DNA from: Amoebophrya sp. A120
Taxonomy: Eukaryota; Protista; Dinoflagellata
Reading direction: 5' to 3'
DNA length: 64,000 nt
NCBI GenBank assembly: GCA_905178155.1
Contig: CAJINV010000005.1
Coordinates: forward strand, 4,381,556 to 4,445,555
Both the position numbers and the translations under genes were made by a program. Shown here in pieces: positions 4,232 through 63,400 of this stretch. Under the pieces are notes generated by a model. It was not told the DNA's origin. It worked only from the letters and a program-made list of their open reading frames with translations, and ran no database searches. Each line of letters starts with the position of its first letter. Within the stretch, counting starts at the first letter, position 1.

Positions 4232-6281
4232 ATGAGTTCCTGCCGTCTCACCAACGAGCTCGACGGGAAGATGCTTCCGTATGTTTGCTTTGGTCGCATT
4301 GCCGACGCTCGGATTCTTTCTTCCGCCGGAGAATCCACTCCAGAAATCGCGCATACCTTCACGAAGCTGCTGACTGCAGCAAGGTAAGAGCGTTTTTGCA
4401 TCTTGCGGCCCCTCCTTGACACTATCAACAAAAGTCTTGGTTACAACACACCGCGGCTCGTAATTATATGTTTGCCACCTGTTGTTCACTTTTACTTTTT
4501 CGTTATCCGAAATAAACCTCGGTTCTTCATTTTTTTTCATCAGGTCCAAGATGAGCCCGGGGACGCGGATGCGGCTCCAGTGGAGCGGCGGTCTCGTTAT
4601 CCTGAGTAAAAACGTCCCCACACCATAGTTGTCATGCAGATTCGCAATGACAGGAACATTTGTAATGCGCATCTCCATGAGAGGCATTTCCAAGCGCGTT
4701 TGGGAATTTGTAATGCTGTAAACGGGATGAGCAGATGGATTTGTGACGCGACTGCACTTTCTAAACTGCACTACAATAGTACGGGCTGGAAGTTGTCATG
4801 CGTTGCTCCCAAAGCTCCTGGGTTTGTCTTGCTAAGTTCCCAACTTGACTATGGGGTGGGGACGTTTTTACATAGGATACTCGTGTGCTGCTTGCTAGAC
4901 GAGGAGGGGCAACTGCTGTACTCGCTCTATCAAATGCAAAAATGTCTGGGTCAGGAAGAATCCAAGTTTGTCATGCTTGTCTCGCATGACTCGAGAATCT
5001 GTGTTGCATAGGCACGAAAAGGCCCTCTTACCTGTCATGCAAAAACGCAGTTTGCCATGCGGAATACGTAAGACATGGCAGCTAAGAAATTTGTCATGCA
5101 TAGCTGCGTATTGCAGTGCGTCTATCATTCACTTTTAGCATTACACCCAGACATATTTGCATTTGATACGCTCGTAACGAGGTCGATTGCGTACCCAGAG
5201 GCACAGTCCTCAAAACTGCTGGAAGACCTGCAGGGCTTCGTACGAGCGGAGTTGGCGAAGAGTCCCGGGTTTTTGCACCAGCTCCTAGCCGAGGATGTTC
5301 CTTCGCCGGGTAGTTCTTCGACTGCAGCGTCTGCGCGCGGTACGGCCAGACCGAGTACTTCTACAGATGCCGCATCCAACACCTTAACCGGCACTGCAAC
5401 ATCAAGCGACAGCGTTCCGGGGGAGGAGGAGAGGGGAGCCACTGCTGCCGTGTTGTCGGGGGAGCCAGAAAGATCCAAGAAGTTGTGTTCTCCCAGGTCA
5501 GCGCCGTCCACAGCGGGTTCTACTTCGGAGGAACGGCAACCGACTTCATGGATGAAGGCCGAGACTTCCACACCATCAACTACAACAAGTTTCGGGGTAG
5601 TTAATACTCCACCACCGCCGCTGTCAGTTTGCACAGGAGACAGCGCGAAAAATGCCACTGGCACAAACCGACCCGCGGGTGGAGGTCCGACAGTATCTCA
5701 GAGCCGTATGCGGCGCCACATGCAGGCGCTGCTCCTGCAGTACGAGAACCCCGTGGAGGCGGCCCGAGTGTCGCGGCTGTTCGCAAAATCGGAGGAACTT
5801 CGGGAGACGACGCGGAACAGTATCAAAACCGTCGTTCGCAACGCGAACCAGATGCACGCCCTGGAAATTCGGTCCCGCGAGATGGAAGAAGCGTCGCAGT
5901 TCTTGGAGCAGCACGCAGTGAAGGTCAAGAAGAAATTCTGGTAAGTACGTGAAATATAACAACTGGGTTGCTTGATTCTCATTTTTTTGGATTCATTTTT
6001 CCGCCGGGATTATTACGTGGAAAGAACCAAAGCAAGAGCATCCTACATTTGACTCTAAAGCGCTTTGCTCAAGTAAGTTAGTAGTACCTTTAGAAGTTGT
6101 ACAATTCAATCTAATGAAAAGGTGGAAGAACAAGGCGATGCTGTTTGCGGGCGGTGCGGTTGTGTCCCTCTGCGCCATTCTGTTATTTTTCCACTTCGTT
6201 TACCCGCTTCTGCCAGCTTTCTTTCCAAACCAGCAGCCGGTCAGCAACGAGGCCGGTGAGGCACCAGCGGCAAGTGCATGA
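4232..6281 (+). CDS. Longin-domain R-SNARE (VAMP7/synaptobrevin-like), about 391 aa
   Basis: Exons 4232-4383, 4544-4597, 4885-4927, 5174-5940, 6122-6281 join in frame; SNARE coil ending KKKFWWKNK followed by a C-terminal TM helix; two GT-AG introns and two TIR elements. Confidence 0.8.
4598..4879. mobile_element. TIR introner-like element, family B (282 bp), TSD CTCGT
   Basis: TATCCTGAGTAAAAACGTCCCCAC...GTGGGGACGTTTTTACATAGGATA; CTCGT at 4593-4597 and 4880-4884. Confidence 0.93.
4928..5168. mobile_element. TIR introner-like element, family A (241 bp), TSD CGCTC
   Basis: TATCAAATGCAAAAATGTCTGGGT...ACCCAGACATATTTGCATTTGATA; CGCTC at 4923-4927 and 5169-5173. Confidence 0.93.
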
Positions 6282-7124
6282 CTTGCAAGACTGAGCCCAC
6301 GGGCAGCAAGTCAACATCCGTGGCTCTACTAGAACGGTTGTGCAGAGCGCGCGACTCGCTGGCCTGGTTAATATCCACTGAGGACGCAGGAGCCGGAAGT
6401 GGGACGTGCGTCAGAATAATAGTGCTGTGCAAGAAGAAGCACAGAAGGAGAGCGTTGCGGTGGGTGTGGCGAGATTGGCGCCGCGAAGAAATGCGTGTTT
6501 TCTACCTTTGTGCAGGTTCCTGCAAATTTTTGATTTTCTGACGTGTACAAAATCGTACGAAAAAGTCGAAATTTTGTTTGATGCTCGAGCACCACGGAGC
6601 TCGCAGACGCGGAGACGTTGCGCTGTGTTGCACACTCACTGCAGGTGCGAAAGAACGGGGAGTATTAACTATGTAAGTGATTCTAGCCAATTATGGGTAG
6701 CACGCGCATCGTGAGTGTGCCACCTGTGCGGCCCAGGTGTAGTTCTTTTGACACGTGGTGGAAAAAGGATGTCTTCCCGCAACGATTTGTTATTTCACTT
6801 GATCGAAAATGAAAGCTGCGCGATCAGATTATAACCGCGATAAATTTTTGAAGATCATTCTTCCGCATCTTCGCAGGAACGGATCCGCGATTTGGTTTTT
6901 CGAACTGTTTCTACATACTGGGCAGCATCGCTGCAATTGCTTGTGTTTTGTCTTTGCGACACTACTGCACCGCTAGTTGACACGTTTGTGACGAGGTCAT
7001 TCGTTTTGTACAGAGTAGCACGTCCCCCCAAGTTGCATTCTATATAGAGCAAGTGTTCTTGTTTCCTGTGTTGCAGGGGCGACAGATCCGTTGCAACAAG
7101 TGGTAGGTGGTGACCAATAGAATC

Positions 7125-8123
7125 ATGCCGGGAACGATTGTTTGTGCGTCTGGGTACTTTGACCCGATCCACTATGGGAGTGTGAGGATTGAAATTGACC
7201 AAGTTGAAACAGTTTGCCATGCATAAAATCGATACCAGTTGGGAGCCCAATTTCCACGCAGCGCATGACAAATCTCGGCACCGTCTGAATCCAGTTTGTG
7301 ATGCTGTTTAGGAACAGAGGGCGTCTCTTGTCATGCTACTTTAGCAGCTCTATCGCAGACCCCAAACAGGCGGACAGTCGGTCTCACTTAGAATCCCTGC
7401 AAGAGAGGCACTTCGTGCCTTGCAATTTATGCATGAGAAATTACATCAACTTTGTCGATTTCAATCCTGACACATCCATATCCACCCGGGCCACATCGAG
7501 TACCTAGAAAGGTCGAAATCGCTCGGGGACAAGCTGTACGTGATCGTGAACTCAGACAAGCAGGCGGAGATGAAGAAGGGCAAGCCCTTCATGAAGTGCG
7601 TGGATCGCCTGAAAATAGTCCGGTCGCTCGCCTGCGTGGACGCCGCCATTGAGGCGTGCGACGCGGACCGGAGTGTATGTGCTTCGTTGCGGATCATCAA
7701 GCCGGACATTTTCACCAACGGCGGCGATCAAAAGAACGAAGGTATTTTTACACTTAGGTTTCCTTGTTCTTTCATCGCTGTGGAGATGTCTTCATCGACG
7801 GCTGCACTGACATATAGTGCAACGGAGAGTCATCCCCGTCGCTGAATGTTTCATTTGTAGGTGAGAATGACCGCAGATGGTTCCTTCCTCAAGCCCGCAG
7901 CTAGTATCGAGAGCGACGTCGATTTTTAACAACATCAATTACGAAACATCATGAAATGGCTGCATACGTGATGATCATCGCAGGTGTGCCAGAGGCGGTT
8001 GTGTGCAACGAGCTGGGAATCAAAATGGTGGATGCTTTGGGGGACAAAATTAACAGCAGTAGCTGGCTGATTGCGAATTCTTTGGGGGAAGAGAAGGTGG
8101 TGAAGGCGGACCCCAACCAGTAG
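7125..8123 (+). CDS. Cytidylyltransferase-family nucleotidyltransferase (TagD/RibL-like), 147 aa
   Basis: Exons 7125-7172, 7486-7741, 7984-8123 give SGYFDPIH|PGHIEYL, IVNSD, KPDIFTNGGD and KINSSSWL (HxGH and SSS motifs). Confidence 0.88.
7173..7480. mobile_element. TIR introner-like element, family C (308 bp), TSD TCCAC
   Basis: TATGGGAGTGTGAGGATTGAAATTGAC...GTCGATTTCAATCCTGACACATCCATA; TCCAC at 7168-7172 and 7481-7485. Confidence 0.93.
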
Positions 8124-13428: not shown

Positions 13429-16400
13429 ATGACGTACTACCCGCTTGTCTCGATTATTGGCTGTTCTCTCTTTGTCGCCCTCGTGCGGCTTGTGCACTTT
13501 CAGTCGCGCCCCGGGGACCGCGCGATCCACTGCTTGGATCGCAGTAAATCACCCCCAGTAGAAGGTCCTGCACAAGCTGTCGCGAATGCACTTCCCCCGA
13601 ACGAACCACAGCCGGCGGACGGCACGACAGCGCCAAATGTTGGCGAGCCACCTCCTGCAACACCCTCCGCGACTGCTGCAACCGCATCAGTTGCGTCACC
13701 TACGAGCAGCACGCCAGAGCCACCGGCTACTACAGCGAACTCAGGGAGTAGAAGCACAAATTGGTGGCCCTGGTCGGCAGATTCATCGAAAGCCAGTACT
13801 AGTGACAACAGCAAGCAAGAAAATCCGGATACAATAAATAAAGTTGATGGTGGTTCCTCGAAGCCAGGGCAGGTGCCGGTCGCCTCGCTGCCGGACTACC
13901 ACAGTGTCGTCACCGATACAGGTTTCTGCCGCAATAGCGCCTGCTGCATCGGCAGTCTGGAATCGGACAAGGGGACGCGGCCGTCGACCATGCAGGGAAA
14001 GTGCCTAGACGTCGAACAGTGCGCCGCGAATGCCCGGCCTTTGATCGAGGGCCTGCGGCGGCCCCGGCGCTACGCCTTCGTATTGAGCTTCTTCGGGCAG
14101 GTGCCGCAGGAGCTGGACTTTTTGCAGCAGCTTCCGAGCATCCAGCGCGCCATCGGGCGCATGCAAAGCCAGAAGCCGGGGGCTGTCACGGTGGACGTTG
14201 TCCTGCTGATTCACCCGGGCCGGCAGATTGCCGCGCACTACAATCCGCTGGACAAAACGGCGATAAAGCACCTGCAGGCAAAGCACAACGTGAAGGTCCG
14301 ACGCGTGCCCTGGACCATTCCCCCGGGCGCCCGCTTTGACCGGGGCAACGAAGGGTGGTGCGGCGAACAGGATTTCATCCGCCTGCACGCCTGGAACATG
14401 ACGGACTACGATGCGGTCGCCTATTACGACAACGACGTCGAGCTCCGCGGCGACTATCTGCCGCTGTTTGAGTGCGTGGACGGCCTGGATGTGACTCTTA
14501 CCACGACTGGCGGCGTGGGCGAGCCCATCAACGTCGGGTTTTTCGCGCTGAAACCGAAGGCGAAGCTACTGGAGGCCGCCGTCCACTTCTCAAAGGTCGC
14601 GGGGTTCGAACCCAAGCGAGGCGGCTGGGCCGACGCAGGGTTCTGGCCGAACCAGTACTACTTCATCGGGGCGGAGTGCGGCCAGGGCTACTGGCTCACC
14701 ATGCTGTTCCGGCGAGACCATACCGTCGTGCGCGAGGCGTACCGAAAGGCCGGGCTGCCGCTAACCGCGGTGCGGGCGGCGTCCATCGATCGCTGTGTGT
14801 GGAACTACCAGCTCTCTTCCGGGTGCGACGCCATTGGCGGCGCGAGGTGCGACAAGGTCATCGGGCACCACAAGCCCGCCCGGGCCGGGTCCGACGACAA
14901 CGAGTGTTTGAAGAAGGGAATTCAACAGTTGTACCGGGAAGACGGGGTGGAAGGTCTTGTAGTCTCAAGACCTGCTGTTCTTGCGGCGATGAATACGACA
15001 GCTTCACTTAGTACCCCCGCGATGTTACAGTTGAAGGACTTCCTGCCCGCAAAGTATCTCCCAAGCGAGAAGCTTGCAGAGACTACGCAGCCGGACGCCT
15101 CTGCGGCCGTGTCGCTCGCAAACCTGAAAGAGTTTCTGTCGCTGGGTCCGCTTCCGCAGCGACTCCCGTGGCCGGGACAGTGGAAGAACGGGCTGCCCAT
15201 CCAGTGCAAGCAGCCGGACTGGCTGGTCCGCAAAGATTTGCTGTCGCTCGACGTGAACCCGCACAAGACCAGTCGGCGAGTGCGTGCGGTGCTCGTGGTG
15301 AGCGTGATAACGCCGAAGGGCCAGGAGGATTGGGGCGCGGCGGAGAAGCGGCCGCCGTTCCTGCTCACAATGCTCGCGGCGTCGCTGCAGCACCTGCGAC
15401 GTTTCGGCCATGGCCTGATCCTGCGGCCGGACTTCACCCCGCAGCTGGACGGCACCCACTTGCAGGCCTGGCAAAAGAAAGCCTGCGACCGGGAGAAAAA
15501 GGACGAACGGCAGTGCATGAAGGACATGCAGCGGGAGAACTTCAACTGGGAAAAGCATTTGATGCTGAACGACTACCTGCAGTTGAAGTTCGGGTCATCT
15601 GGTACTCCACCGGGTACTAGCGGGGACGAGGACTCGCAGAGGTTGTATCGGTTTACGCACGTGGGCATGCTGGACGCGGACGCCGCCTTCGTCAACTTTC
15701 ACCTGGACTCGCTCGGGATTCTCGCTTGGAATTTAGCGAAGACAAAAAAGCAGGTGTTCGTCGGGAACGAAGATTGGTTGCGGGGGGAGAGCGAAGGCGC
15801 GCTGCTTTCGCACGCGAAGCGCGCCAACGGCGGCCTGATTTTCGCCGCGAACTCCAAGTTTTCGCGCAGCCTGTTCACCGATACCTTCCAGGCTCACGTC
15901 CGCGGGAACGAACGCACCTCGACCCCCTGGACAACGGGCGGCATCTATCAAAATGAAAAATCCCCCCTCCCCATATCAAAACGGAAATTTGTGATGCTGA
16001 TTTGTGACCACAAATCCGCTTTGTATTGCACAGAGGCACTGCGGCCAGATCCCCAGGCTACGTAGGGGCGTATGGGTCTAGTAGTTCAGCATGGCAAGCG
16101 GGTCACTTTTAGGGCGAACAGCATGACAAATCGCTTCCATAATGGGGCGGAAGCTTCTGCCCTTGTCTTCTTGCAAGACAGATGCGATTTGTGACCTCAA
16201 ATCCGCAACGCAAATTTTTGGAAACATACCTTTTTAATATGGGGAGGGGGGATTTTTCCTCTCAATAGCATCGTGGCGCAATGTTCGTCCAACGAGCAGA
16301 TCTGTTTGAGCGACTTGATGTACGGGCCCCCGCGGACGCAGGCCGGGGCGATTTTCCCCATGCACCGGTATTTTCTCCTCGGATCGGGGAAGTTTTGGAA

Positions 16401-18748
16401 CCGGGGCCGCGCACCACAGGCGCCCACGGTGCCGCTTCCGGACCACCAGCTGCACGTCATGCACTACATGGGAGGCGGTCGGCAGCAGGCGGTCGCAGAT
16501 CTGTGCGAAAATACGTACATTGCGCAGGCCATCGGCGAGAGCGCGCGCAACGTTCTCGGGGTTTGCGGGCAAAGAGTAAATCCGCCAATCAGCTGCTCGA
16601 GCCATCCCGATTCCCTCCTCCTGGCGAATACGGATGTTTACCCGAAAAAGACAGCGGAGCCCCAGGACCCCTGGAGCGGTCTAGTCGTTGATGCCAACGG
16701 CACAAATAAAAATACGCTGGTCCTCGCGCCGGGGAAAGTAGAGGCTGCGGCCCAACAACCCCCACTGGAACCCGGGGTCACCACACTGCCGCCAGCGGAA
16801 GTGAAAAAATCCGGTGCAACTGTTGAGACGGCCCCCGCCGCGCCCAACGTAGAAGTAGTACTCACGACGGCTGCCCCTGCGAACCCAAGCGCAGCTGACG
16901 ACCACGCGGACGGTACAAAAATCAAGAACGCCGCCGGGGCCGGACCGCTTACCAAAAAATGCGGTTCCGGGCAGCCCCCGACAGAGGCGTGCAGATTGCA
17001 GTACAGCTGCTGCGACGTGCAGAACTGGAGCTGCTGCGGGGAGGATAAGTTTGTCGTGCAGCCGAGGCGGGCCTTGCGGAACACGACGGCCGTGGGGTTT
17101 TACCTGCACGTCGGGGGTCGCGGCGAGTCCGCGGCGGTCACCTACCTGGCTTCCCGGGTGCTGTATTTCAACCCGGGCGCCCCCATCTACATCATGTCGG
17201 ACGGCGCCGAGCAGTACGAGGACTTCTGCCGCGAGCTGAGCCAAAAATTCGACTCAAAGTGCATCGCAGTGTCGTGCCCGTCCGCGGAGGACCGGTGGCA
17301 CCCGTGGCCGTTCTTCAAGCGGTTTCGCGACGTGGCGGTGGCGCTCCCGGAGGTCGAGTATCTGGTCATGCTGGAGCCCGACAACACCCTGCACTCGGCC
17401 GTGGACGTGAGCACGTTCACGCACGACGCGGGCGGGATCCTGGACCACAACGGGAACTTTGGGGAAAGCCTCGTCCAGTATGGGGAAAGCCTGGCGCAGC
17501 AGCTCCCGGGCAAGGAGACGTTCAAATGGGTCTACAAGGGCACGTATCAAGTGCAAAAATGTCTGCGTCTGGAAGGATGTAACCTGTGATGCGCATTTCA
17601 GAACACACAAAAATCTCTCATGCATAGGTAGCAAAAGCTGCCCACTTTCTGTCACCAAAATGGGGGACTTGTCATGCGTGTTCGGCATTGCGGAAGCTTG
17701 TCGAAACCTGTGATGCTAGAGCTTCCATGCCAGACCTTCTGCGTCATGCAGAAACAGCATGACTCTTCCAGACCCAGACATATTTGCATTTGATAGCACG
17801 GGGCTCGCGGGCGGCAGCTACTACCGGCGCACGGCGATTTTGGATGCGTTCGCGGACGAGGTGGCTCAAAAAATGGACTGGAAGAAGATCTACAAGCTGG
17901 GTCCCAGCGCCGCGGTCTACTCGTCCGACTTTGCGATGCCGATCGCGCTCGCGTTCCGCGGATGGACCTACGCGCCCTGGGGGGCGGTGCGCCAGGCCTA
18001 CGGGTCGAATCCCGACCCGACTCAGCCGCAGCGGAACGTCTCCATTATCCACTACAACCGCGACATCACCGGCGGGAAGCCGGCAACGCGCATCCGCTTG
18101 TCCGAAGCCGCCAAGGCGGAGGCCGGGGCGTCCACGACCACCGTGGGGCAAAGTCGGGAGGTGAACGCGGCTCCACCCGCACCACTTCCGGCGGACTGGA
18201 TGCTGTCGGTCGTGCGGGCCGGGAGGCGGGTCCGCGGCCCCAAGGAGGAGTGGGCGCGGCGCGCGATCAACATCTGCCAGATGTGTTGGAATCGGGAGGA
18301 GTACGTGCGCCGGTTCGGCACGGAGGTGTGCGCACCGAAGTACAGCTTCAACTACACCGCGGAGATGATACCGAAGGACGCGTATTGTGAAGAAAAATCC
18401 CCCCTCCCCATACCAAAACGGGATACTTCTGAAAATTTGTGATGCTGATTTGAGGCCACAAATCGTCTCTGTATTGCAAGAACGCATATCCAAAGATCTG
18501 GCCGCTTTCGGCAGGCAATTTGTAATGCTGTATGGCCTAGGGAGGACATGCCTGCCTTGCTAGGCCCCTACAGCAAAACGGCCCTACTCCAGCTTTGTAT
18601 CTGTGTGCAGTCCTCTACTGCAAGACAAATCCGATCTGTGTACGCAAATTCTTCATCACAGACTTCCACTTCGATATGGGGAGGGGGGATTTTTCCTTTT
18701 GATAACGCGAGACCCGGGCCGGCGGGGGCGATACAGCGGATGCGATAA
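13429..18748 (+). CDS. Large type II membrane multi-domain glycosyltransferase (GT8-like, GT34-like and a third GT-A-like module), about 1469 aa
   Basis: N-terminal TM helix; FIRLHAWNMTDYDAVAYYDND; MLDADAAF...NGGL...NEQ; VMLEPD. One continuous frame after removing three TIR elements. Confidence 0.7.
15946..16267. mobile_element. TIR introner-like element, family D (322 bp), TSD GCATC
   Basis: TATCAAAATGAAAAATCCCCCCTCCCCATAT...ATATGGGGAGGGGGGATTTTTCCTCTCAATA; GCATC at 15941-15945 and 16268-16272. Confidence 0.92.
17545..17795. mobile_element. TIR introner-like element, family A (251 bp), TSD GCACG
   Basis: TATCAAGTGCAAAAATGTCTGCGTCTGGAAG...CTTCCAGACCCAGACATATTTGCATTTGATA; GCACG at 17540-17544 and 17796-17800. 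Confidence 0.93.
18383..18704. mobile_element. TIR introner-like element, family D (322 bp), TSD ACGCG
   Basis: TATTGTGAAGAAAAATCCCCCCTCCCCATA...TATGGGGAGGGGGGATTTTTCCTTTTGATA; ACGCG at 18378-18382 and 18705-18709. Confidence 0.92.
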
Positions 18749-19575: not shown

Positions 19576-21226
19576 ATGGCACACGTCGAGCGCATATCAA
19601 ATGTAAAAATGTCTGGGTCTGGAAGAATGCAACTTGTCATGCTAAATCTGAAGCATTGAAAAATCTGTGTTGCATGATTGCCAAAAGTGGTCCAGTTTTG
19701 ACCAAGTCGGGAGGGAGTTTCTCATGCAGGGTAGGCATGAGAGAGATCGCGCAGAATCTGTCATGCTAGGTCCTGCATTCCAGACCTCGTGTGTCATGGA
19801 AAAGCTGCATGACAAATCTGACAATCTTCCAGACCCAGACATTTTTACAATCCATAGCGCAAGAAGCGACCGCTAGATGAGCATCTGGTGACGCTTCTCC
19901 AGACCGCAGACCCGCCGACGCGCGAGGAATACGCAGTCAAGAAGGTCGAGCTCGCACGAAAAATGGACCGGTTAGAATTCGTGTCCAAGGCCCGGATGAA
20001 GTTCATCAAGAATCTGCACGAGAACAACGAAAAGAAAGTGGACGCCATCCTGTGCCGACCACCGGGAAAACTTGCGGAAGTACTTACTACAACACCCTCC
20101 GTCGATGGGTTTACTTTGTTTTTTTTTTGTACGTGAGCTGCGCTCCTGGGTATTAATTAGTTGGTACATCCTTCTCGATGAAGAGCAGAAGCCTGTGTTT
20201 CGCTGCAGGCTCTGAGCGTTGCAACAGATGAATTCATTGGAGTACTATAGCTATCGAGTCAAAATGAAAATCGTTTTCCAGGTGTCTAAGCAGGGACTTG
20301 TGCAGGCGGACGCTTTATTTGAGACGCTGAAGCAGGATGCGCTGAAGAAGAAGTCGATTCCAAAACGGCTGGATATCGTCCACAATTACTGCGTCCATCT
20401 GGAAGTGCAGCAGAGCAGAGGTATTTCGTCCACTTGCGGTTTTGAATTTCCTGCAGTCACTATTATAGACGAGTTCGTTTTGCATCGTACAACATGCAAG
20501 GGAACTACTTATCGTGTTTCTGTTTGAGTATGACTACACGATAACTAAGAATTTCCTGGATCAAGAAAAATACATCAAGAGGACCAAAGCACCCCTTGTT
20601 AGAAGAAATGCAAACGAATGACGAAGCGAATGCAGTAAAACCACGCGACCACAACAGGCATGCAAACGCCGGATCAAATGGATCCCTTGCCATCGCCGGA
20701 GTTGTTTCAGGACATCAATTTTATGGACATGAATCCCACCTACACCGACTTGTTGAACAACGAACCCTCGCCGTTTAAGCCGGCGGATGGAGCCACGCGC
20801 GACCCGCTCCTCGCCGTCTGCTTGCTCCTATGAGAGTGAGTGTACTACAACTCCCCCTCCCCCTCTGTCATGCGAAAACGCAATTCCATTTCCAGCCACT
20901 GCCTCACATCGCTATCTTGCATAACGGACTTGGGAATCCAAACAGTACTATAATAGTTCGCACGCATTGTAATATAGTGATTTGTCATGCAGATGCCACT
21001 TTTCTGAGTCTGACCTGATCTCTATTGCTGTTCTTGGCTCCTTCAAATGAGGGGGAGAGGGAGTTGTGCTCACTGATAGCTCCAGCCGTACACGCCGCCA
21101 CCGCAAATCGTCGAGGCGCAGCAGCGGGCAAAAGCACGCGCGGTCGAGCAAGTGGCCGAGCAGAAGCGCATCGAGAAACTACTCGCGCGCAAGGAGAAGG
21201 AGCGGTTCGCGGCCCTAACTGCGTGA
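19576..21226 (+). CDS. Hypothetical helical protein, multi-exon
   Basis: MAHVER|KKRPLDEHL after removing the family A element; three GT-AG introns; AVCLL|QPYTPPPQ...FAALTA* after removing the family E element. Confidence 0.55.
19595..19856. mobile_element. TIR introner-like element, family A (262 bp), TSD GCGCA
   Basis: TATCAAATGTAAAAATGTCTGGGTCTGGAAG...CTTCCAGACCCAGACATTTTTACAATCCATA; GCGCA at 19590-19594 and 19857-19861. Confidence 0.93.
20829..21078. mobile_element. TIR introner-like element, family E (250 bp), TSD GCTCC
   Basis: TATGAGAGTGAGTGTACTACAACTCCCCCTCCCCCTC...GAGGGGGAGAGGGAGTTGTGCTCACTGATA (TIR with an indel); GCTCC at 20824-20828 and 21079-21083. Confidence 0.85.
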
Positions 21227-22492: not shown

Positions 22493-25400
22493 ATGTATAA
22501 GTTCAAGGAGATCCAGACGGTCCCGCCAGCGGACGCGATGATTGACATCATCCTCTCCAAAACGAACCGGAAAACACCGACGGTGGTGCACCCGGGCTAC
22601 AAGATTTCGCGGATTCGGAATTTCTACTTGCGCAAAATCAAGTTTTGCCAGTCGGCGTACGCGGAAAAGTTCCAGGATATCCTGTGCAAAAATATCGTAC
22701 TCGTAGTGATCGCAATTATGCATTACAAATCTACTTGATAAGGTAAATGCGCATTACAAATTCAATTTGTAATGCTGAGCCAATTTGTATTGCGATTTAT
22801 ACTAGTACGATACTTTTGCAATGCATACAGGACATGCTCTCGCAATTTCCGCGGTTGGACGACATTCACCCCTTCTACGCAGATTTGTGCAATGTGTTGT
22901 ACGACCGAGACCACTACAAACTCGCGCTGGGGCAAATTTCCACCACGAAAAACATCATCGACAACTGCGCGAAGGACTACGTGCGCATGATGAAGTTCGC
23001 CGACTCTCTGTATCGGTGCAAGATGCTCAAGCGCGCCGCGTTGGGACGCATGTGCACCGCGGTCAAGAAGTTGGGGCCGAGCTTGAAGTACCTCGAGGAG
23101 GTCCGACAGCACCTCAGCCGCCTGCCAAGTACGTTTTTTGTTCATCTTCTACAGCCGATCTTCGTCGTTCTACAGGGCCTTGGTTTATTGTTCAACTGCG
23201 TTCTACTCGTCTTGTCGCTCTGATGTTACAACTTACTACTGCGCATAAAGATAAAAAGATTTTTTTCGCGTAGAAGAAATCGAAGGAAATTATCTTCGTG
23301 CGTGCTCCCTAGCAAGGAATCTTGATGGTTCTACTTCTTCTCTTCACAGGTATCAATCCCACGACACGCACCCTGATTCTTACCGGGTTCCCGAACGTCG
23401 GAAAAAGTTCTTTCATGAACACGGTGACAAATGCCAACGTGGATGTGCAGCCTTACGCGTTCACCACCAAGTCTCTATTCCTCGGCCACATGGACTACAG
23501 GTAGATACGATCTATGTATAGTTATTGATGCGGGGCTGATGAGAATAGATGAAAAACAAAAAGAAAAACTACCGGTGCAGCGTATCCAGTGGCACTTCTT
23601 TCTTTGCACTACTAGTAGTTGTATCTATGCAGACAGTCCGCCTTGGTGACTGTGCCCATTGCTAGTAATATTTTTCCATGATCGAAAAATAATAAATGAA
23701 ATCACAGATACACCCGGTGGCAAGTGATCGACACGCCGGGGATTTTGGACCACGCTTTGGAATATCAAATGCAAAAATGTCTGGGTCTGGAAGGATGCCA
23801 GATTTGTCATGCAGGATTTCCATGACCCATGAGGCCTGGAATGCGGGACCTAGCATGACAAACTCTGTGAGGTCTTTGTCATGCCTACACTGCATGAGAA
23901 ATCCCCGCCCAACTTGGCCGAAACTGGGCAGCTTTTGGCACTCATGCAACACAGATTTTTGCATGATCCAGATTTAGCATGACAAGTTGCAATGTTCCAG
24001 ACCCAGACATTTTTGCAATTCATATGGAAGAGCGGAACACGATCGAAATGCAAGCGGTGACTGCTCTGGCGCACATTCCGGCGACCATCCTCTACTTCAT
24101 GGATATCTCTGAAACGTATACCTTTATTCTGGCTTCTTGATGTAGTAGTTTTTGTGCTTCTGAGGATGATGTTTTTGCGATTCTCTACTAATTTTGCTGT
24201 GCAGGAGCTTTCCTTGCTGTAGTCCATATGCTATTCATATCGCGAAGAAATCGCAAACTGAATTTAATACCTTAACATCACAGCTGCGGACGCAATTTGC
24301 GTGAGCAAGTGAACCTGTTCAACTCACTGAAGCCGCTTTTCCGGGGAAAGCCACTGCTGATCATCGTGAACAAGATTGATTTGCGAAAAATGGACGACTT
24401 GCAGCCGGAAGAAAAGGCGCTGCTCGAATCCATGACGAAGGACATGGAGAACGAAGTCACGGTATAATTTTTTCTTTGTTGTCGAAAAAGAAAAACGGAG
24501 ATTAAATGCGCTGGATTATTGAACATGTTCGCTGATGTACTTAGCAGACACTCCAAAAATCGATGCAAATCTGGGTGTCCGTGGCTTGCGACTGATTTTC
24601 CGGCGTCAGGCAAAGATCAGGTTCACTAGCCGCGTTTCGTGCACAAGAAACTTTCGCGAAGATGATATTAGATAAAGTAGTCTTAAGCGTAATTACTTAT
24701 ATTCACCGTCTTGTACTGAAACTGAAAACAGCTTTTTCCGGTGTCCGTGCAGCAGAAGGAGGGTGTTGACGCTGTGCGAACGAAAGCGTGCGACTTGCTG
24801 CTTTCCCGCCGGATCGACAGCAAGATCAACAGCAGCAAGGTAGACGCCATCAAGAACCGGATCTTCATCGCGGAACCCACGAATCCGAGCATTGCCAGCA
24901 AGCGGCCCCCGTGCATTCCGGAAAGCGTGGTCTTGCAGCAACAGCAGCAGGCCAGCGCAAGCAGTAGCAGCAGTAGCGCCGGCACGACCCAAGCGACGAG
25001 TGCAGAAGGGACGAAGAGGGTCTTGGAGAAGGATCTGCAGGAGGAACACGGCGGTGCGGGTGTCTACGTGGCGGACTGGAACAAGGAGTGGCAGCTGTCC
25101 AACAGTAATTGGAAGTACGACGAGATTCCGGAAATTATGGACGGCATGAACGTCGCGGACTTTATCGACACCAACATTTTGGAAAAGCTGGCGAAGCTCG
25201 AGGAGGAGGAGCGCGCGGAGCTGTTGGCCGAGGGCCTGGAGGACACGGAGCAGGTGTTGAAGTCCTGGCAGGACTGCGAAAAGGAGATCGGGCTGATGCA
25301 CCGGGCGATCAAGGCCAAACAGAACGCGAACCGCGATCGCAAGGCCCGCAACGCCATGGGAACAGGGGGCATTGAACGCAAGCGAAACAAGTCGTTGAAG

Positions 25401-27124: not shown

Positions 27125-28701
27125 ATGTCGACCAGTCAAGTTGGACTGCCGTACAAAGGCCGGTCCCTGGCAGTGAGCTCCACGGTTCGCAGAGCGCCGA
27201 AGTTTTCCTTCGGCTCCGCTACTTCAGGACTGACCAAGCTGCTCGCAAAAAGCGCCGCAGACGTCCCAGGGCCTGGCGCTTATGAGCCTGAAGGGTCACG
27301 CGACGGCCGCAAGAGGACAGCACAGGCGTACGCTATACTTTAAATTCATAATATTTTTGCTGGGGGGCATCTTCACGTGCCCAAATACTTATATTCTCTC
27401 TGCAGTTTTCAGACCTGCTATGCTTTTGTTTGTGACACAATCGATTGCTTCCTTGTGTGCCTCGATGAAATTCAATTTCAAATCCATTTTTCGGTTAAGC
27501 AGAGAAAACCAAACAATCAAAATCGAGTTTGCGTGTTTTCCTCCTCATCACAGGTTTTCCTTCCGCCCGAAACCACGCTCATTGCAGTCGAACACAAACG
27601 CCGTTGTTGGTCCGGGCAGCTACGACCCCAGCGATAAGCTTTCGAAACCAGCATCAAGGTATAACTTATGTGTAAAAGAAACACAAACACGACATAGGCC
27701 GGAAAGTTAAAATTTTTGCTTCCACTCTCTCGTGAAGATGTGAAGAATGAAGTAAAGAGTTTGCTGCAAGAGCCCCGGCACTTTAATGAAAATATGATGA
27801 AAAATTTATTACAGTCGCGGCGGCTTTTCGCATGCGCGGCGGTCCGCGGGACCGTCATCCTTCAAGAGCTTCCAGCCCGGTCCTGGAGCGTACGATACGC
27901 GCGCAGACATGACAAAGCAAGGGCTGCAGTTCAGCTTTCGGCGTAAACCTGCCGCTATGGATCCAACACGAGGCACGCCTGGACCAGGTGCCTACGAGGC
28001 GCCGGCATCCGCAGCCTCCAATTCGTATCTAGAAAATTATGTTTTTCGATTTGATTTTCATTTTAGCGTTCCACCGGACCACGAACAACACTGCTCATTC
28101 AGTACAGCATTTTATTTTTCTTTGCAACTTTGACTTTTGTTCATTTTGCTATACACCAATGAATGCCTTTCTACACCAACTCAGCGCGACGGCAAGGTCG
28201 GTGCATGGGATCGCGAAGCACTCCAGCCGAGCAGTGAAGTTTTCCGGGAGCCAGCGGAATCTAGCGCCCTTCCGCAACGAGAACCCGGGTCCAGGTGCGT
28301 ATGACCACGCGGCTGGCACCTCAGTCAGCGCGAGACAACCCCCAGCCTATTCGATCCGCGGGGGCGGACGGCCAAAACTCATACGCATCGCAAATATGTC
28401 TGGGTCTGGCAAGCTGTGTTGCTGAATGGTCATGATTGAGTGCCGCGCCTCTAAGTGCAGCGACGCATGACAAATCTCTCGAACGCTTCCTAATGCGTAG
28501 TGCGCACTACAAACTGCGATCTTGTATGACGAAAGAGTGGCACTCTTGCTGCATATGCGCAGCACAGATGTTTCACGAATGCAAGACACACAATACAGGC
28601 ACAACCTTTCCAGACCCAGACATATTTGCATTTGATAACTCAAGCGGCCTGACAATCCGGGACCCGGTGCGTACGATGCAGCGTACACGCAGTTCTCGTG
28701 A
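27125..28701 (+). CDS. SHIPPO-1/ODF3-like PGP-repeat axonemal protein
   Basis: Repeated PGPGAY/GPGSY motifs with FSF across several GT-AG-separated exons; PKL|KRPDNPGPGAYD after element removal. Confidence 0.8.
28382..28637. mobile_element. TIR introner-like element, family A (256 bp), TSD ACTCA, TAC left end
   Basis: TACGCATCGCAAATATGTCTGGGTCTGG...CCAGACCCAGACATATTTGCATTTGATA; ACTCA at 28377-28381 and 28638-28642. Confidence 0.9.
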
Positions 28702-45216: not shown

Positions 45217-46238
45217 ATGTCTGGCTCTACGAACCCTCTGATAGCAGCGGACTGGATTCCCTGCAGACGCGACGAATGGCGGCTGAACAGCCTTCGGGTG
45301 CAAGAGTATGAGCATCTTGTGCGCGCACGCGATCCACAAAACGGGCTTCGCTTTTCCTACGCGGAAGGGGACGTCGGGAGTACTGCTGCGGAGAACAAAT
45401 CGAATCCGAAACACTGGCGGTGCCAGTGCCAGGGAATCGTGGGAGAGATGACGATAGAGATGGAAAACGTTGAAGTTTTCTTCATCAGCGGAGACAAGAC
45501 GTGCTTCTTTCGAGGTGACTTGCGGGCGGAGTTCTTGGATCCCGAGAACATGGCGACTGCTGCACGCGTCGACAGCCTCACACACGGCGTCTACCGCGGG
45601 CCGGTGGATCTGTGTGTTTTCGAAGCCGAACTGGGAGAGGCGGAACCTCCGGGCCGCGAAGAGGACACGCAAGATGTAGTTAAAACCGCTGTGTTTCTCC
45701 GCGTAAGCAGTGCGACGAGCGGGCTCTTGGAGTACTGGACCACTGCAACGCCTGCGCGTCTGAACATTACGCATCTCATATCCTATGTAAAAACGTCCCC
45801 ACCCCAGAGTCAAGATGGAGATTTTGCAACACAAACCTTGAAGTTTTGGGAATCACGCATGACAAATTGCAGGCTGTAGTGTAGTGCAGTTTATTAAGGG
45901 AAGCCGCATAACAAATCGATCTCTTTATGCTGTTTACAGCATTACAAGTTCCAAAACACGATTGATAATGCCCCTCATGGGATCGCGCGTTACAAACGCT
46001 CTTGTGCTTGCAGATCTGCATCACAACTCTGGGGTGGGGACGTTTTTACTCAGGATATCTCAACACGTACCCGCACAGCAGAGCAGCTGAACAGCAAAAA
46101 TCTTTCGACGGATTATTGTCCTCTTCTCCGCCCGGCGCGGGGGCTGGGTCACGAGCGTGGTACCGGGTCGAGAACAAGAAAGTGCTCCGCACCAAATTAT
46201 ATCGTCGGAGCACAGCCGCTGGCTACAATTATACGTGA
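45217..46238 (+). CDS. Hypothetical protein
   Basis: GC-rich frame; ITHL|NTYPHSR join after removing the family B element; stop at 46236-46238. Confidence 0.6.
45779..46057. mobile_element. TIR introner-like element, family B (279 bp), TSD TCTCA
   Basis: TATCCTATGTAAAAACGTCCCCACCCCAGAGT...ACTCTGGGGTGGGGACGTTTTTACTCAGGATA; TCTCA at 45774-45778 and 46058-46062; inverted relative to 4598-4879. Confidence 0.94.
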
Positions 46239-51616: not shown

Positions 51617-52060
51617 CTTGATGACTAGACAATGAGTACACCTGTTGCGAAGTGCTACCATAGACTGATGGTGCTTGTCGGCGCTGCGCATCTGGTAGAA
51701 TAGGTCTTGGAGTTTGATGATGGAGTCGCCAGTGACTTTGTCTTGGATCATAGAAAATTTGCTTCGGCGGGCAGCTCCTGTTTTCCAGATCTAAAACATA
51801 AAGATCAAATTAGATCGGCGGGTTGTCATAGATCGCACTAAACTCAGCAAACACCACACTCAAAGCCGCGAAATACACCGACAAACACCTAGACCACACA
51901 GTGCACATACTCGCTTGCGCATAGGTCTGTTTGACGACAATCACTTCATATTTCAAAGTCTCCTTTTGTATTTAAATTTAATTTTCCAATCTAAAAGCAG
52001 AAGCACATACTTAGACTTACACGTGTACTCTTGAAGCACATTCAGAACTCGAAAAGTACC

Positions 52061-55559: not shown

Positions 55560-57756
55560 ATGTCCGCCGCGCCGTCAGTCCGAGGGGCCCTTCTAGCCTT
55601 GATATCCTGAGTAAAAACGTCCCCACACCAGAGTCAAGTTGGGGATTTTGCAACACAAACCTTGAAGTTTTGGAAGCCACGCATGACAAATTGCAGGCTG
55701 TATTGTAGTGCAGTTTAGTAAGGGAAGTCGCATTACAAATCCATCTGCTTATCCTGTTTACAGCATTACAAGTTCCAAAACACGAGCGGGAATGCCTATC
55801 ATGGGGATGCGCGTTACAAGTCTTCCTGTCTTTGCAAATCTGCATTACAACTCTGGCGTGGGACCGTTTTTACTCAGGATACTTGAATGTGTTGATCTAT
55901 CTCGTTCTGTACCGGCTGAAGCAGTCTGAAATATCAAAGTGAAAAAAGCCCCCACCCCATATCGGAAACCGAAGATGCGCGAATTTGTGATGCTGTATTT
56001 GAGTACACAAATCGACTTGTATTGCTAGAAGGCCAAGAGACGAAGCTGCGGCCTAAATTGCAGGCAATCTGTCTTGCTGTTTCCCAATTCCAGTTGCCTC
56101 CTGTCATCCTGGAGCTGCAAGGCTTTCCCACGCTGGACAGCACTACTGTCCGCATCTTTTGCCTTCTAGCATCACAAAGCTGATTTGTGACCACAAACCT
56201 GCATCACAGATTTCCGTTTTGATATGGGGAGGGGGCATTTTTCATTGTAATATGAAACGAACCTGGTGTTGTGCACCCTAGAAACGCCGAAAGGGGCCGC
56301 GGCCAGTATCTCATCTGCCGGCGGCGGTGCTGCGGTTGGTACCGCGACTGCAGGGACACCACCTGCAACAAATATTAGTACTACAACAAAGAGTAGTACT
56401 CTGGCTGCAGTTCATCTTCCAGCAGAGAGCACGAAGGCGCCGGCGATCGGAGGTGCAGCTGCGCCCACTTTAATAGAGCAAGAAAAGAATGCAGCTCTGC
56501 AAGAAGCTACAACAACGACAGCAGCACCGGCGGTTGCCGCAGGAATTCCACTTCGAGACGCGGCGACAGCTGCACCGCGGTTCAACATTACTTTTTCACA
56601 GGCGTCGAAGGAGTTCGTGCCATGTACGCGCGCGTCGCAGAGTCAAAGCTCGCGGCCCGGCACGCCGTGCATGCCGCCCGCGAAGCGCTACCCCTACAAA
56701 AGCTGGACGCCGTGGCGTGCGGAGCTCGGGGAACGCATTCTCGCCGCGGTCACGCCCGAGGGGGCTGAGGCGCTTGAGAAGAAGTGCAACGGGTGGACGT
56801 TGTTTGGAGACAGCACCTGGTGCAACAAAGCCGTGAAGCCGGAAAACTGGAGCGGAGTTCCAGGTACTGCAGTCGGCCTGTCTTTCGGGGTGGAGGAGCG
56901 GGATCTGTGGAGCGAAAAAATGAGTAATTGGTTCAAAGTCCCCCTGGTGCAGCTGTTCGATTGCTTCCAGGACCCCGGGAAGTCGCCGGCGCTGACGGGG
57001 CGGGCGAATCCGCCGGCGGACACGGGGGAGTGCAACGACAACGGACCGCACTGCTATTCCGGGCGGTACGAGGGCTACCAGGTCTGCCTTTCCGAACCGG
57101 CTAGGGATGCTATCACGAAGGTGAAGAAGATTGAGCCAGGGACTTCGCTGAACAGCACGGGCATCTACCAATTTGTGCAGGGCGACGAGTCGAGGGAGCT
57201 CGACAGGTGGCGACGGAACTACACGACCTTGTCGAACGTGCTGGAGCACTGGCGGCAGCGACCACCGGTCGCGGTGCCTACTAAAAGTGTTAATACTCCT
57301 GCAGTTGTTGAACAACCTTCTGCAGCCGCTGGGAAAAATGATTCGAATCCGCCGGGAAGCAAACCTAAGTTGTCGGTCTTTTTGAAGATTGATGTAGAGG
57401 GGTCCGAATGGGGTGTGTTAGAAAAACTTGCAGCGCCGGAACACGAGATGGATCGAAACTTGATTCGGACACTGGACATGGAGGTGCACTTCGGCAGCAA
57501 TACCGATCCGCGCAAGAAGGAGTTCGGCAATAATGCCAAGGGGGGCATCAGCTTCGAAGTGAGCATCCTGGAGCGGTTGAGGAAGTACTTTTATGTCACC
57601 GGCTCCACTCTCGAGGTGTATCGAGAAGGCTGGCACCCGGACAAGGACTGTCCACAGAGTAACTGCGATGAGCCGATGCTGCACTTGGCGGGGGGCATGG
57701 GCATGGCCGCCTTTGCAGTCAGCTACGTTAACAAAGCGCTCGTGGACGGAAGTTAA
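55560..57756 (+). CDS. Type II membrane SAM-dependent methyltransferase (FkbM/METTL24-like)
   Basis: The TM anchor GALLAL|NVLIYLVLY and SE|TNLVLC appear after removing two elements; LSFGVEE, FLKIDVEGSEWGVL, LDMEVH. Confidence 0.75.
55603..55881. mobile_element. TIR introner-like element, family B (279 bp), TSD CTTGA
   Basis: TATCCTGAGTAAAAACGTCCCCAC...GTGGGACCGTTTTTACTCAGGATA; CTTGA at 55598-55602 and 55882-55886. Confidence 0.94.
55932..56252. mobile_element. TIR introner-like element, family D (321 bp), TSD TGAAA
   Basis: TATCAAAGTGAAAAAAGCCCCCACCCCATATC...GATATGGGGAGGGGGCATTTTTCATTGTAATA; TGAAA at 55927-55931 and 56253-56257. Confidence 0.92.
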
Positions 57757-58314: not shown

Positions 58315-59628
58315 ATGGCGCTCCACAACAAGAATAAGATGCGGTTCGAATTCGTGTACCGAGGCGCGAGCTCTGTTCTGGACCTGGACACGACAGAGTT
58401 CGTGATGGCGGCGACGTGTAACGCCGAGACGGACGCGGTATCAAATGTAAAAATGTCTGGGTCTGGAAGAGTGCAAGAGTTGTGATGCAGGTTTTCCGGG
58501 ACACACGAGGTCTGGAATGCGAGACCCAGCATGACAGATTCTTTGAGGTCTCTACCATGCCTTTCCTGCATGAGAAACTCCCCCGCAATACTTGGTCAAA
58601 AGCGGACAGCTTTTGGCACTCACGCAACACAGATTTTTGCATCATTCAGATTTAGGATGACAAGTTCTAATCTTCCAGACCCAGACACTTTTGCATTTGA
58701 TACGCGGCCACGGTCGACGACTTGGTGGCCTGTTTGGATGAGGAGCTGGAAAAGGGGTTCCAGCTGAAATCCACATATCAACCGCAAATATGTCTGGGTC
58801 TGGAAGGTTGGAACTTGTGACGCTAACTTTGGACTCTAAAAGAATCTCTATTGCATGACCAGCAAGAGGAGTCTAGTTTGTGCTACGCGGGGAGGCATTT
58901 GTCATGCGGCGTAGGCACCATCAGGAAGCCCTCTAAAAATCTGTGATGCTAGGTTGTGCATTACAGACATCCTGGGTCATGCAAAATATGCTGAGAAACC
59001 CGGCAACATTCCAGACCCAGACATTTCTGCATTTGATACCACACGGCTGACCACCAACAAAGATACGTCCGACGAGCGCATCTGGTTGGGTTTTTTCCCG
59101 GTGGCGGATCTGCTCGCTGCGGGTGGTCCGGTATTTGTGGATGTGGAGCAGGTTGCGCCCGGTAGTGGAGCTGCTGCGACCGGCTTTCCACGGTCGGCGG
59201 CGGCGCGTGCAACCCTGAATGAGGGTCGTGCGCCGCAGAACTGTCTTGACACCACGCCGGCGTCTTCCAAGCAAGTCCAGGCAGGAATGAACAACGATCA
59301 AGAAGGAAACGCCGAAGATCATCCGCGTGGAAAGAACAACTACAACACCGAGGTGAATGGCGACAAGAAACCGGCGCTGCCGACTTTTCTGCAGGAAATG
59401 GGAAAGCAAATGGCCGAAACGGTGCTGAAGCAGCAAAATGTTAAGGAAACTGTGCTGCCGCACTTACAAGACCTGGCGACGGGGGACCCCAGCAAGCTGC
59501 AGAACATGCTCGAGAATCACCCCATGCTGTCGCACCTGCGTGGCCAGCTGTCCGACCCGGACAAACTCCAAAAAATGCAGCAGCGCATGCAGGAACGGCT
59601 GCAAAGCCTGCAGGGCTCTGGGGCGTGA
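58315..59628 (+). CDS. Hypothetical protein with a C-terminal STI1/DP-like repeat
   Basis: ETDA|ATVDDLV...QLKST|RLTTN joins after removing two elements; DPSKLQNMLENHPML...DPDKLQKM. Confidence 0.6.
58439..58702. mobile_element. TIR introner-like element, family A (264 bp), TSD CGCGG
   Basis: TATCAAATGTAAAAATGTCTGGGTCTGGAAGA...TCTTCCAGACCCAGACACTTTTGCATTTGATA; CGCGG at 58434-58438 and 58703-58707. Confidence 0.94.
58776..59038. mobile_element. TIR introner-like element, family A (263 bp), TSD CCACA
   Basis: TATCAACCGCAAATATGTCTGGGTCTGGAA...TTCCAGACCCAGACATTTCTGCATTTGATA; CCACA at 58771-58775 and 59039-59043. Confidence 0.93.
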
Positions 59629-60473: not shown

Positions 60474-63400
60474 ATGAGATCATCGACCTCGTCGCTTTCA
60501 ACGCGGTCAACCGCCTCCTCGTCCGCTCGGGGAGCTGGAGGCACTAGTCGTATCAATAACTTTTTTGACGGGGATCGCGATCATCGTGTTGAAACGGCTG
60601 ACGCAAGATCCGACGGTGGGCTACACCTATCGGGGTCGAAATCCTCTTCCACAACATACCAGACTCGCACAGCTGATGTACAACTTTGCAAGACATACAC
60701 GGGGAATGATCATAGTACAAGAACCGGGTCGCCGTCGCTCACGCTTCTGGATATTGACGACGAGGAAATAGCGCAGCTGCAGCGCGACATTTTTTTCGGG
60801 AACGCAAGCAACGAAGCCCGGCCTCAGATTCGGCACCGTCTAAGCAGCGGCCATGCAGGCGCCCGAAAAACCGACCAGGAGGGGTACCGCACAGCGGGCA
60901 AGAAGGTTTATTCCGGAACCAGTCCGACGTCTCCGCTTAGCTCGAGTCCAACATCTCCCACGACCGCGACGACCGCGCCGAAGAGCTCTGGGGTCAGCGC
61001 GTCAACAAGTGCTGATCAAGAATGTTGGTTACTGGCGGAGCTTGTCGATGCCTCCGAGCACGCTTACTCTAATTCCAAATACACAGCACAGGAACTGGAA
61101 GTCATGCGTGGGCATATTCGACAGCAGCTCGCAAAGGACAGTGACGAGGACGAGGACTTGTGGAACTACGGTGCTTCCTCTGAGGCTGATACTAGTGCCG
61201 CTCTCTCGCGTGTGAAGCGGAAAAATGCACTGCTGATGCGAAAGAAAAAGGCACTGCGCTTCCGCTGCCTCTGCATCCTCGCCTACACCGGGTTTTTGTC
61301 GTTCCGCTGCGATCCCGTGTTCTCGCGGGAGATCACGGAGAGCACCTGGAAATTGCTTCTGATCACGGTGGAGTTGGCGAATGGCATCTTTTTCCTGTTG
61401 GACACACTGGTGGTGCGTCGGCTAATCTGGATGACATCACATCAAAACGATTTTTTGGTGGCGCACCAAGCAGGACGAGGTCGTATGTTTAATACAACTG
61501 CGCTGCCCGAGCCGAAACCGAATTCGGTTTTATTTCCTTGGATCTCCTGGCCGGAAGTCGTGGAAGTCTTGCTCCTCTTGGGCGCCACGCTGACGCAGTT
61601 GTTTTACCTCTTCGTTGCCACGCCCGCGACCAGCACGCGGAGCGACGCGTTTTTCCTCCAAGTGCTCGCTTTGCTGTGGCTCGTCCGCGTGCGCATCCCG
61701 ATCCAGGCACTGTTTTTCCAGAAGACCCAGGAGCAGAAGGAACTGCTGGCGTTTCGCGACTTTCTCAAGACGCTAACGGGCGGCCAAGGGGACGGGCAAT
61801 CGAATAGGAACAAAGGTAGCCCTCGCCCGAGAACAAGGACGTTGAAAAGTACGAGCACCTCCAAAGGACGAGGGCCGTCCTCGTTGGCGACGCGAGTTTC
61901 CTTGACGAAGATATTTTCCACGATTGTGTGGAGTTTTCTTCTGTTCGGCATTCTGTCGTACGTGCTGGCGCTCTACGTGGCCATGGAGTACAAGCAAAAC
62001 TACGAGGCATTCCAGCAGTACAGCAAGATGTCGGGGTGGAACTCAACGAAGCGGTTTGGCACGACGACGCGCAGCTTCGTGCAGTTGACGCGCGTGGCCT
62101 TCATGGATACCCGCGTTCTGCACGACGTGGTCCGGCACGCCCTGGGCTGCTACCCGTCCTTGGGGTACATCTTTCTGTTCCACTTTTTTCTCTGCGGGTT
62201 CGGTCTGTTGAATGTCATCCGAGCGTCCGTCGTCAGTTACGCCGGCGTAAAGACCGCCGTCGAGGAATTGGAAATGCGAAGCAGCCAGTTCGGAAACAAG
62301 CCCACCGACGCTAACAGCGGACACTTGCAGAAACTGGCCGAAATTTACGATGTTTTCAAGTTTGTCGCGGAGAAGAAGCTAACGCGGTTTGCGCTCCATT
62401 CAAGTGGTGGCACTTCTCTGGATGTGGACATGATCATTGACAGCAGTAGTTCATCTGAGGAACACCACTCGCTCTCGTCTTCAGCCTACGAAGCCCGTAT
62501 AAGAAGTCGGAACAAACAGACGGAGGCTGCCCGGCGACTCAGACACAGCAGTAGCAGTCGCGTGCTTCAGGCCTCGCGGATAGTTACGTCGTCTGCAGGT
62601 CGTGGCCCGGGCGCCTTTGCTCGGAGTAGATCCTCTCCTATCGGAGTGAAGGAAGTGGCAACTACTACGTCCTCTGGAGCAGCAGGAGCGTTCCAGGTCG
62701 CTGCGAGGTTAGCGGCAATTCCAGAGGAAGCGCGTCGGGAGTACGAGAAAGGTGCTGCTCGGTGCATCGGTGTGCGGAATGTCGTATCGAAAGGAAAAAT
62801 CCTCCCTCCCCATATCAAAACGGAATTTCTGATGCTGGATTTGCGTACACAAATCAGGTTTGTATTGCAGAGAGGCACTGCGGCCAGATCCCCAGGCTAG
62901 GTAGGGGCGTACGGGTCTAGTTGTTCAGCATGGCAAGCGGCTCACTTTTAGGCCCAACAGCATGACAAAGCGCTTCCATAATGAAGCGGAAGCTTCTGCC
63001 ATCGTCTTCTCGCAGAGGGGGGATTTTTCCTTTTGATATGTCGTTCCCATGCCACCAGACGTGAAAATTCAGATATGGCTTGCTCAGATGTTACAATCTC
63101 AAACGTTACAATAGAATCTGAAATTTGTGTTGCATGAACAGCATGAATACCAAAGAGAGACTTGGGCTTTTCGCAATACAAATTTCGGCAGATCTCCATG
63201 CGGTTTGGAGTTCCGAAACTTGTCATGCGCGCTCCTGTGGGAGTAGGCCAGATGTTGTGCATTTTGCAACACAAATTCTAGATTCTGTTGTAACGTTTGA
63301 GATTGTAACACCTGAGCAGGTTATATCAAAATCGCTTTCATTCTACCATCGGAGATGCCCCCTCTTGTGCGCGTCCCCGCGCGCAGCTGTTTGTGCGAAG

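Follow-up and report, generated by a model that had tools for sequence, protein, structure and literature searches.

The introners of Amoebophrya sp. A120 are non-canonical introns whose inverted ends consist of TAT, seven looser bases, and a run of A, according to the available text of PMC7789003 and the catalog of PMC12130899. They have short direct repeats and a mean length of about 240 nt, and by their ends they were split into 1,954 families (PMC7789003). That paper leaves open both their mode of movement and the way in which they are spliced; its available text describes the terminal repeats alone, with no internal word, pair spacing, or end phasing. Here, we analyze 64,000 nucleotides of this genome (contig CAJINV010000005.1, positions 4,381,556 to 4,445,555; "the window", in which all positions below are counted) and describe a conserved word of about 12 bp in the interior of its introners. 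The elements are already known, and internal binding arrays are a known principle; the conserved, phased word across introner families is apparently new. No mention of the word or its spacing was found in the literature on these elements (PMC7789003, PMC12130899, PMC9860276, PMC11282704, PMC12005148, as available, figures and some supplements excepted), and the matches listed by a full-text search for the motif letters were unrelated by title.

Comparable arrays are described for other mobile elements. In Emigrant (Lemi1), a miniature inverted-repeat transposable element (MITE), the subterminal repeats are bound cooperatively, and subterminal transposase-binding repeats are also cited for hAT, CACTA, Sleeping Beauty, and pogo (available parts of PMC1636448). 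The TnsB protein of Tn7 requires several weak sites at proper spacing (PMC9308760, as excerpted). The target site duplication (TSD) of Ginger elements is 4 bp (Ginger1, most Ginger2) or 5 bp (TDD-4/5) (PMC2836005, as excerpted). One A120 family has terminal inverted repeats (TIRs) and integrase-like coding homology; the row for this family 38 reads "Ginger; 5-bp TSD, TA/TA termini", and its authors report no homology to known Gingers (PMC12130899, rows available).

The window is of eukaryotic type: its genes are co-oriented, on the + strand, and GT-AG introns and numerous short insertions are present. A motif-blind search for inverted ends gave 22 elements and inspection one more. The 23 elements (Table 1) are 150–322 bp long and form seven end families (A, nine copies; B, three; C, four; D, two; E, two; F, one; G, two). 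Their termini are TAT...ATA inverted repeats, with TAC at two of the 46 ends. A run of A lies near inverted-repeat positions 11–15 in families A, B, C, F, and H (the last from the held-out sample below) and is weaker in D, E, and G. An exact 5-bp TSD flanks 21 of the 23 elements, and a strong target sequence was not seen. The families are repeated and high-copy, with a summed sequencing depth thousands-fold above that of unique DNA. By ends, direct repeat, lengths, and removal from RNA, the elements match introners of the Amoebophrya A120 type. The lengths listed in 38 of the 58 rows of PMC12130899 (149, 208–209, 214–227, 252–261, 278–279, 305, and 319–322 bp) match the window families. The direct repeat is uniformly 5 bp here, whereas 3–5 nt are given for published A120 introners (PMC7789003, available text).

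A preliminary description of the window had proposed that one motif, TGT(C/G/A)ATGC, recurs in all seven families. This is borne out: counted on both strands, 64 of the 67 strict matches of the window lie inside elements (6,107 bp, 10.5/kb), and each of the 23 elements has at least one. The remaining three fall in 57,893 bp (0.05/kb). Background composition does not account for this, as 500 dinucleotide shuffles of the elements gave a mean of 1.6 strict matches and a maximum of seven. The examples cited at the time were found again, namely TTGTCATGC and TTGTAATGC twice each in 4598–4879, GCATTACAAAT twice and TTTGTAATGC once in 22678–22827, and TGTCATGC twice in 20829–21078. The proposed extent, 4598 to 63325, was too narrow, since two more elements lie to its left (1455–1714 and 1880–2101). 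Three matches had been called isolated. The one at 21714 is, while that at 1962 lies inside an element, and that at 39910 belongs to a family E remnant, in which a second site lies at a distance of 32 bp. Just two strict matches, 21714 and 49796, are unattached to an element or remnant. Ordinary GT-AG introns of the window lack the word, save for this remnant (39864–39921). The stretch 21590–21790, which follows the stop codon of a gene and holds the match at 21714, matches none of the held-out elements in BLAST (E < 1e-3). An iterated matrix gave a full word of about 12 bp, (A/G)YYTGT(C/G/A)(A/T)TGC(not C). The letters proposed earlier correspond to its core; the word extends beyond them and is more permissive, allowing A or T at core position five. 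T is nearly absent at the variable position (2%). With the 12-bp matrix, 121 sites are found in elements (19.8/kb vs 0.92/kb outside).

The word was also examined in a held-out sample. One metagenome scan with the family A end gave at least 171 stretches (170 loci), all from one other assembly, possibly of the window's own strain. A motif-blind finder that required ends and a 5-bp duplication yielded 244 distinct elements, none identical to a window copy, and 237 of them carry the strict motif (12.7/kb). Family A dominates the sample (150 of 261 clustered sequences, window copies included), and the word is also present in the new end families H, I, J, K, L, M, N, and O. The smallest family, of 109 bp, consists of two inverted repeats and one 32-bp pair. 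Against the enrichment stand 500 strict matches outside called elements in these loci (1.65/kb); 426 of them lie within 250 bp of another, and we infer that they are uncalled or decayed copies. In a viral collection, the family A end pattern had no match. The motif-pair pattern matched at least 120 loci there, and none of 120 was an inverted-repeat element with a TSD; the four viral loci rich in such matches are unrelated, three being short tandem repeats.

Within families, the core is kept better than its surroundings. When an outgroup copy served to define the sites and the other copies to score variation, 11 of 172 core columns were found to vary, compared with 328 of 878 other interior columns. 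The core is also conserved above other interior columns in 14 of 14 held-out alignments. Among variants between sequencing runs (40 of 147 rows), one of 39 interior places falls in a core, where 22% would be expected. TpG/CpA positions depart in 3.5% of cases within cores and in 17.9% at non-motif positions; the core conservation is therefore not a dinucleotide effect, and an origin of the word by CpG decay is rejected. On trees, the ratio of core to other changes is 0.16 on internal and 0.37 on terminal branches (Fisher P = 8e-7), and for TIR positions 4–30 it is 0.51 and 0.71. The stronger constraint on internal branches is expected if copies with intact sites are those that propagate, although terminal branches mix decay after insertion with unsampled propagation and do not cleanly separate mobility from host selection. 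Together with the enrichment and the masking result below, this supports the earlier proposal of a shared code that was kept while the inverted repeats diverged.

The sites are also spaced. Same-direction pairs at 31–33 bp, i.e., three DNA turns, make up 37 of 162 in the window (null mean 4.5, maximum 13). They occur in six of eight family consensuses (null 1.3; as many in 0 of 20,000) and in 10 of 14 family representatives, the spacer letters differing. Families E and G have two convergent pairs at 45–48 bp instead, a class present in four of the eight consensuses (P = 0.003). Length changes of at least 2 are rarer in the 31–33 bp spacers (22/313) than in other spacers (74/537). An inward site lies within 62 bp of the end at 350 of 488 held-out ends, with 67 at 33–34, 241 at 41–45, and eight at 53–56 bp. 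For 13 family ends, the offset of about 33, 43, or 55 bp gives R = 0.80 at a period of 10.5 bp (P about 3e-4), in a fit that is post hoc and uses hand-picked ends. A general 16-bp lattice was dropped, since its 27 of 40 distances lay in post-hoc bins and end offsets gave R = 0.17; the rules of 31–33 and 45–48 bp were kept.

Removal from RNA was followed in contigs of runs taken as RNA by guess; GT introns likewise mark stopping points of these contigs, and the element ends are retained in the DNA-like run X1. The element plus exactly 5 nt is skipped in 10 of 14 elements examined, with seven of seven in one set, all from one study, and three of seven among the matches listed in the other. Four are not shown joined in the rows listed, two of them with low-depth retained contigs. 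Both family B copies with six antisense sites (45779 and 55603) are skipped. So are the 62785 copy, in which about 70 bp at the right end are free of sites, and the 58776 copy, whose right-end site is decayed. For the all-sense family B copy at 4598, removal in silico yields a single open frame that spans both its own joint and the following one. At 63069–63330, a one-base difference between the TSD copies localizes the RNA joint (one element, three runs, one sample). On the left, the cut falls at the first base of the 63074 element or one base ahead of it; on the right, it falls 5 or 4 nt beyond the last one. The 3′ boundary is therefore in target DNA of arbitrary sequence, a constant distance away from the inverted repeat. 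A raw RNA run with the same species label (X9) covers only the family A repeat (19595–19677 and 23940–24024), apparently from one locus with other flanks; it is not this locus and hence is uninformative on its splicing. The differences listed for it lie between motif sites, not within them.

Sense was assigned by a codon classifier that gives the right sign in 20 of the 23 window elements. Every family with three or more classified copies occurs in both orientations. In 155 elements, 276 strict matches are sense and 229 antisense; 14 elements have at least two strict sites antisense and none sense, and 16 show the reverse.

The subterminal repeats of MITEs and other class II elements resemble this arrangement in that short sites recur inward of the TIR, in either orientation, and are arranged differently at the two ends. 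They differ in that the present sites are known from sequence alone, that the word occurs in at least 13 end types with different TIRs and spans the whole element, mostly unlike the TIR, and that the elements are removed from RNA as introns. Tn7 has a 5-bp duplication and an integrase-like fold. Its TnsB end arrays are alike in having several weakly conserved sites at set spacing and asymmetric ends (PMC9308760, as excerpted); Tn7 differs in being bacterial and multi-protein and in its termini, site length, and spacing. Ginger2/Tdd elements share the 5-bp TSD in the case of TDD-4/5, whereas Ginger termini are TGTNR (PMC2836005, as excerpted) rather than TAT, and the elements here are non-coding.

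By analogy with these arrays, we favor as the probable reading, on balance, that one and the same transposase, or a protein that binds DNA as its partner, would recognize the word as a site in double-stranded DNA. A common binding factor had been suggested in the preliminary description, and it is still the binder that we infer. A binder of double-stranded DNA is favored over a single-stranded RNA splicing factor because antisense-only copies are excised, insertions occur in both orientations, and the phasing is about one DNA turn. Several protein units would occupy the phased sites along a single helical face and come together beside the TAT ends, where they would cut and paste with a 5-bp stagger. 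The internal array and the terminal TAT would confer specificity, and the rest of the inverted repeat would thereby be free to diverge into many families. Excision from RNA would depend mainly on the ends, as an inverted-repeat hairpin, and not on the word. From print alone, one candidate enzyme class is the integrase-like coding region of A120 family 38.

Several observations weigh against a mobilizing protein. A Pfam scan of 134 of the 199 open reading frames of at least 200 aa found host genes only and no transposase or integrase family, including no gypsy-integrase-like transposase near the elements. No autonomous copy was found in 425 kb of loci: the search gave 21 unpaired family A ends and seven long candidates, and those listed are decayed or carry secondary insertions, none with a transposase frame. 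The available text of PMC7789003 reports no transposase in A120 and rejects general mobilization by one. Core constraint on terminal branches is strong and exceeds that of TIR positions 4–30, and a host-level role would give the same. Known MITE subterminal repeats resemble part of the TIR (PMC1636448, available parts), whereas the word mostly does not. The geometry is not universal either, with outward first sites in F, L, N, and one end of B and H, and with convergent rather than same-direction pairs in E and G. Finally, 11-bp RNA helices would give figures similar to the end phasing.

The same data can be read in other ways. A host or domesticated DNA-binding protein might read the phased sites on the chromosome and mark the element for co-transcriptional excision or packaging, so that the host keeps the word; we consider this somewhat unlikely. 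Orientation independence and helical phasing suit any binder of double-stranded DNA, the word is conserved on terminal branches too, and no window element lacks a strict site. Furthermore, U1 small nuclear RNA was not detected in these genomes (PMC7789003, available text), so that a novel reader of boundaries is needed. Such a role fits less well with the weaker constraint on terminal than on internal branches, with the skipping of the 62785 and 58776 copies despite their missing or decayed right-end sites, and with ordinary GT-AG introns that, one remnant apart, do without the word. Alternatively, the word could act in RNA, either by binding a protein as a signal for splicing or through complementary blocks that bring the intron into an exon-joining hairpin. 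Folding predicts motif–motif pairing in eight of nine consensuses (probability 0.40–0.87), there is a slight excess of sense matches, and the elements do leave RNA-like contigs. Family B, however, is one-directional with zero predicted pairing; it is excised with all sites antisense, and the frame is restored in the all-sense copy. Antisense-only elements are about as numerous as sense-only ones. Compensatory change at the variable base was not found in eight predicted pairings (+0.026 vs −0.013), a comparison of low power in which the TIR control was also weak, and pairing alone needs no identical letters across families. An action in RNA appears quite improbable to us.

Kinship between families bears on the last alternative, that the word is a relic without present function, inherited from one ancestor and multiplied through internal duplications and inversions. 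Convergent-pair spacers are alike among D, E, and G (4 of 13 with z > 3), the 31–33 bp spacers show a faint overall likeness (mean z 0.76), and F and H have a three-site module in common. D/E/G and F/H thus probably share interior ancestry besides the word, to judge from these letters, and descent explains part of the motif sharing. Between the eight family consensuses, however, BLAST matches are short and motif-centered, and none remains after motif masking, which also reduces BLAST sensitivity. Spacers of different families reach z > 3 in only 2 of 127 comparisons, yet the length between site starts stays at 31–33 bp. Within families, cores change three to six times less than their flanks, and simple descent with a motif no better kept than its flanks does not agree with the column counts given above. 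The relic is largely refuted by this within-family conservation and is, in our view, very improbable. The shared mobilizing protein remains the reading that we prefer.

Further features of the elements are as follows. Several lie in close pairs with 35–73 nt of exon between them (36869–37478, 55603–56252, 58439–59038, 62785–63325, and 4598–5168). CpG is depleted in elements (observed/expected 0.57, or 0.66 with motifs masked, vs 1.09 for the whole window), a possible sign of methylation. Insertions within held-out elements (L001–L170) peak at 3 nt, with 74 cases vs 44, 16, 17, 10, and 21 for 1, 2, 4, 5, and 6 nt, and deletions have no such peak (four of 3 nt). Most 3-nt insertions resemble a 2-nt repeat around one extra base, and 14 of the 21 six-nt ones are repeats of 5–6 nt. 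The 3-nt insertions may be excision footprints, which in exons would keep the frame; an origin from hairpin P-nucleotides was not supported (25/49 vs 28 expected). The secondary insertions in long copies (L035:632–1465, L039:3304–3760, and L070:571–1051) end in short ATC/ATG or ATGA repeats beside CATG, which suggests that another mobile element inserts at or beside the motif.

Table 1 Introner elements and one remnant in the window. X3 to X6 are runs taken as RNA; skips are those of their contigs
Feature	Position	Strand	Remarks
Family A element, 260 bp	1455..1714		5-bp TSD; sites +34(+), +73/+81(-), +120(-), +179(-); left of the extent first proposed
Family E element, 222 bp	1880..2101		No exact TSD; contains 1962 match
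Family B element, 282 bp	4598..4879		Six sites, all + sense; three pairs at 31-33 bp
Family A element, 241 bp	4928..5168		
Family D element, 308 bp	7173..7480		Six sites
Family C element, 322 bp	15946..16267		Three 32-bp pairs; missing, together with one TSD copy, from RNA-like contig X3 record 9
Family A element, 251 bp	17545..17795		Called sites all + sense; skipped, X3 record 9
Family C element, 322 bp	18383..18704		Orientation opposite to 15946 copy
Family A element, 262 bp	19595..19856		
Family E-type element, 250 bp	20829..21078		
Family F element, 150 bp	22678..22827		Host gene has NOGCT domain downstream; outer sites face outward; skipped, X5 record 20
Family A element, 262 bp	23763..24024		Orientation opposite to 19595 copy
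Family A-type element, diverged, 256 bp	28382..28637		
Family G element, 238 bp	33167..33404		Two convergent pairs at 45-46 bp
Family D element, 306 bp	36869..37174		
Family A element, 262 bp	37217..37478		
Family E remnant without ends, within GT-AG intron	39864..39921	-	90% over 58 bp; two sites 32 bp apart; contains 39910 match
Family B element, 279 bp	45779..46057		Six sites, all antisense to gene; 284-nt skip in X3, X4, X5, X6
Family B element, 279 bp	55603..55881		Six sites, all antisense; 284-nt skip, one X5 contig, depth 3.6
Family C (C2) element, 321 bp	55932..56252		326-nt skip in X5
Family A element, 264 bp	58439..58702		269-nt skip in X5
Family A element, 263 bp	58776..59038		Right-end site decayed; 268-nt skip in X5
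Family C element, internal deletion, 254 bp	62785..63038		Without right-end pair; 259-nt skip, depth 93-114, X3, X4, X6
Family G-type element, 252 bp	63074..63325		TSD copies differ, localizing RNA joint; 257-nt skip in X3, X4, X6

A conserved, phased word would unify the A120 families as clients of one machine. It could serve as bait for isolating its protein and as a filter for finding the autonomous element. Relating the number of sites to splicing efficiency and to copy age would part a mobility signal from a splicing signal. In an unlikely extension of the preferred reading, one protein would read the phased DNA code both to move the elements and to flag their exact removal from RNA. If this were true, a domesticated transposase-like factor would stand in for the U1-type recognition of boundaries that is missing, and a single hidden grammar would govern tens of thousands of non-canonical introns whose ends are unrelated.

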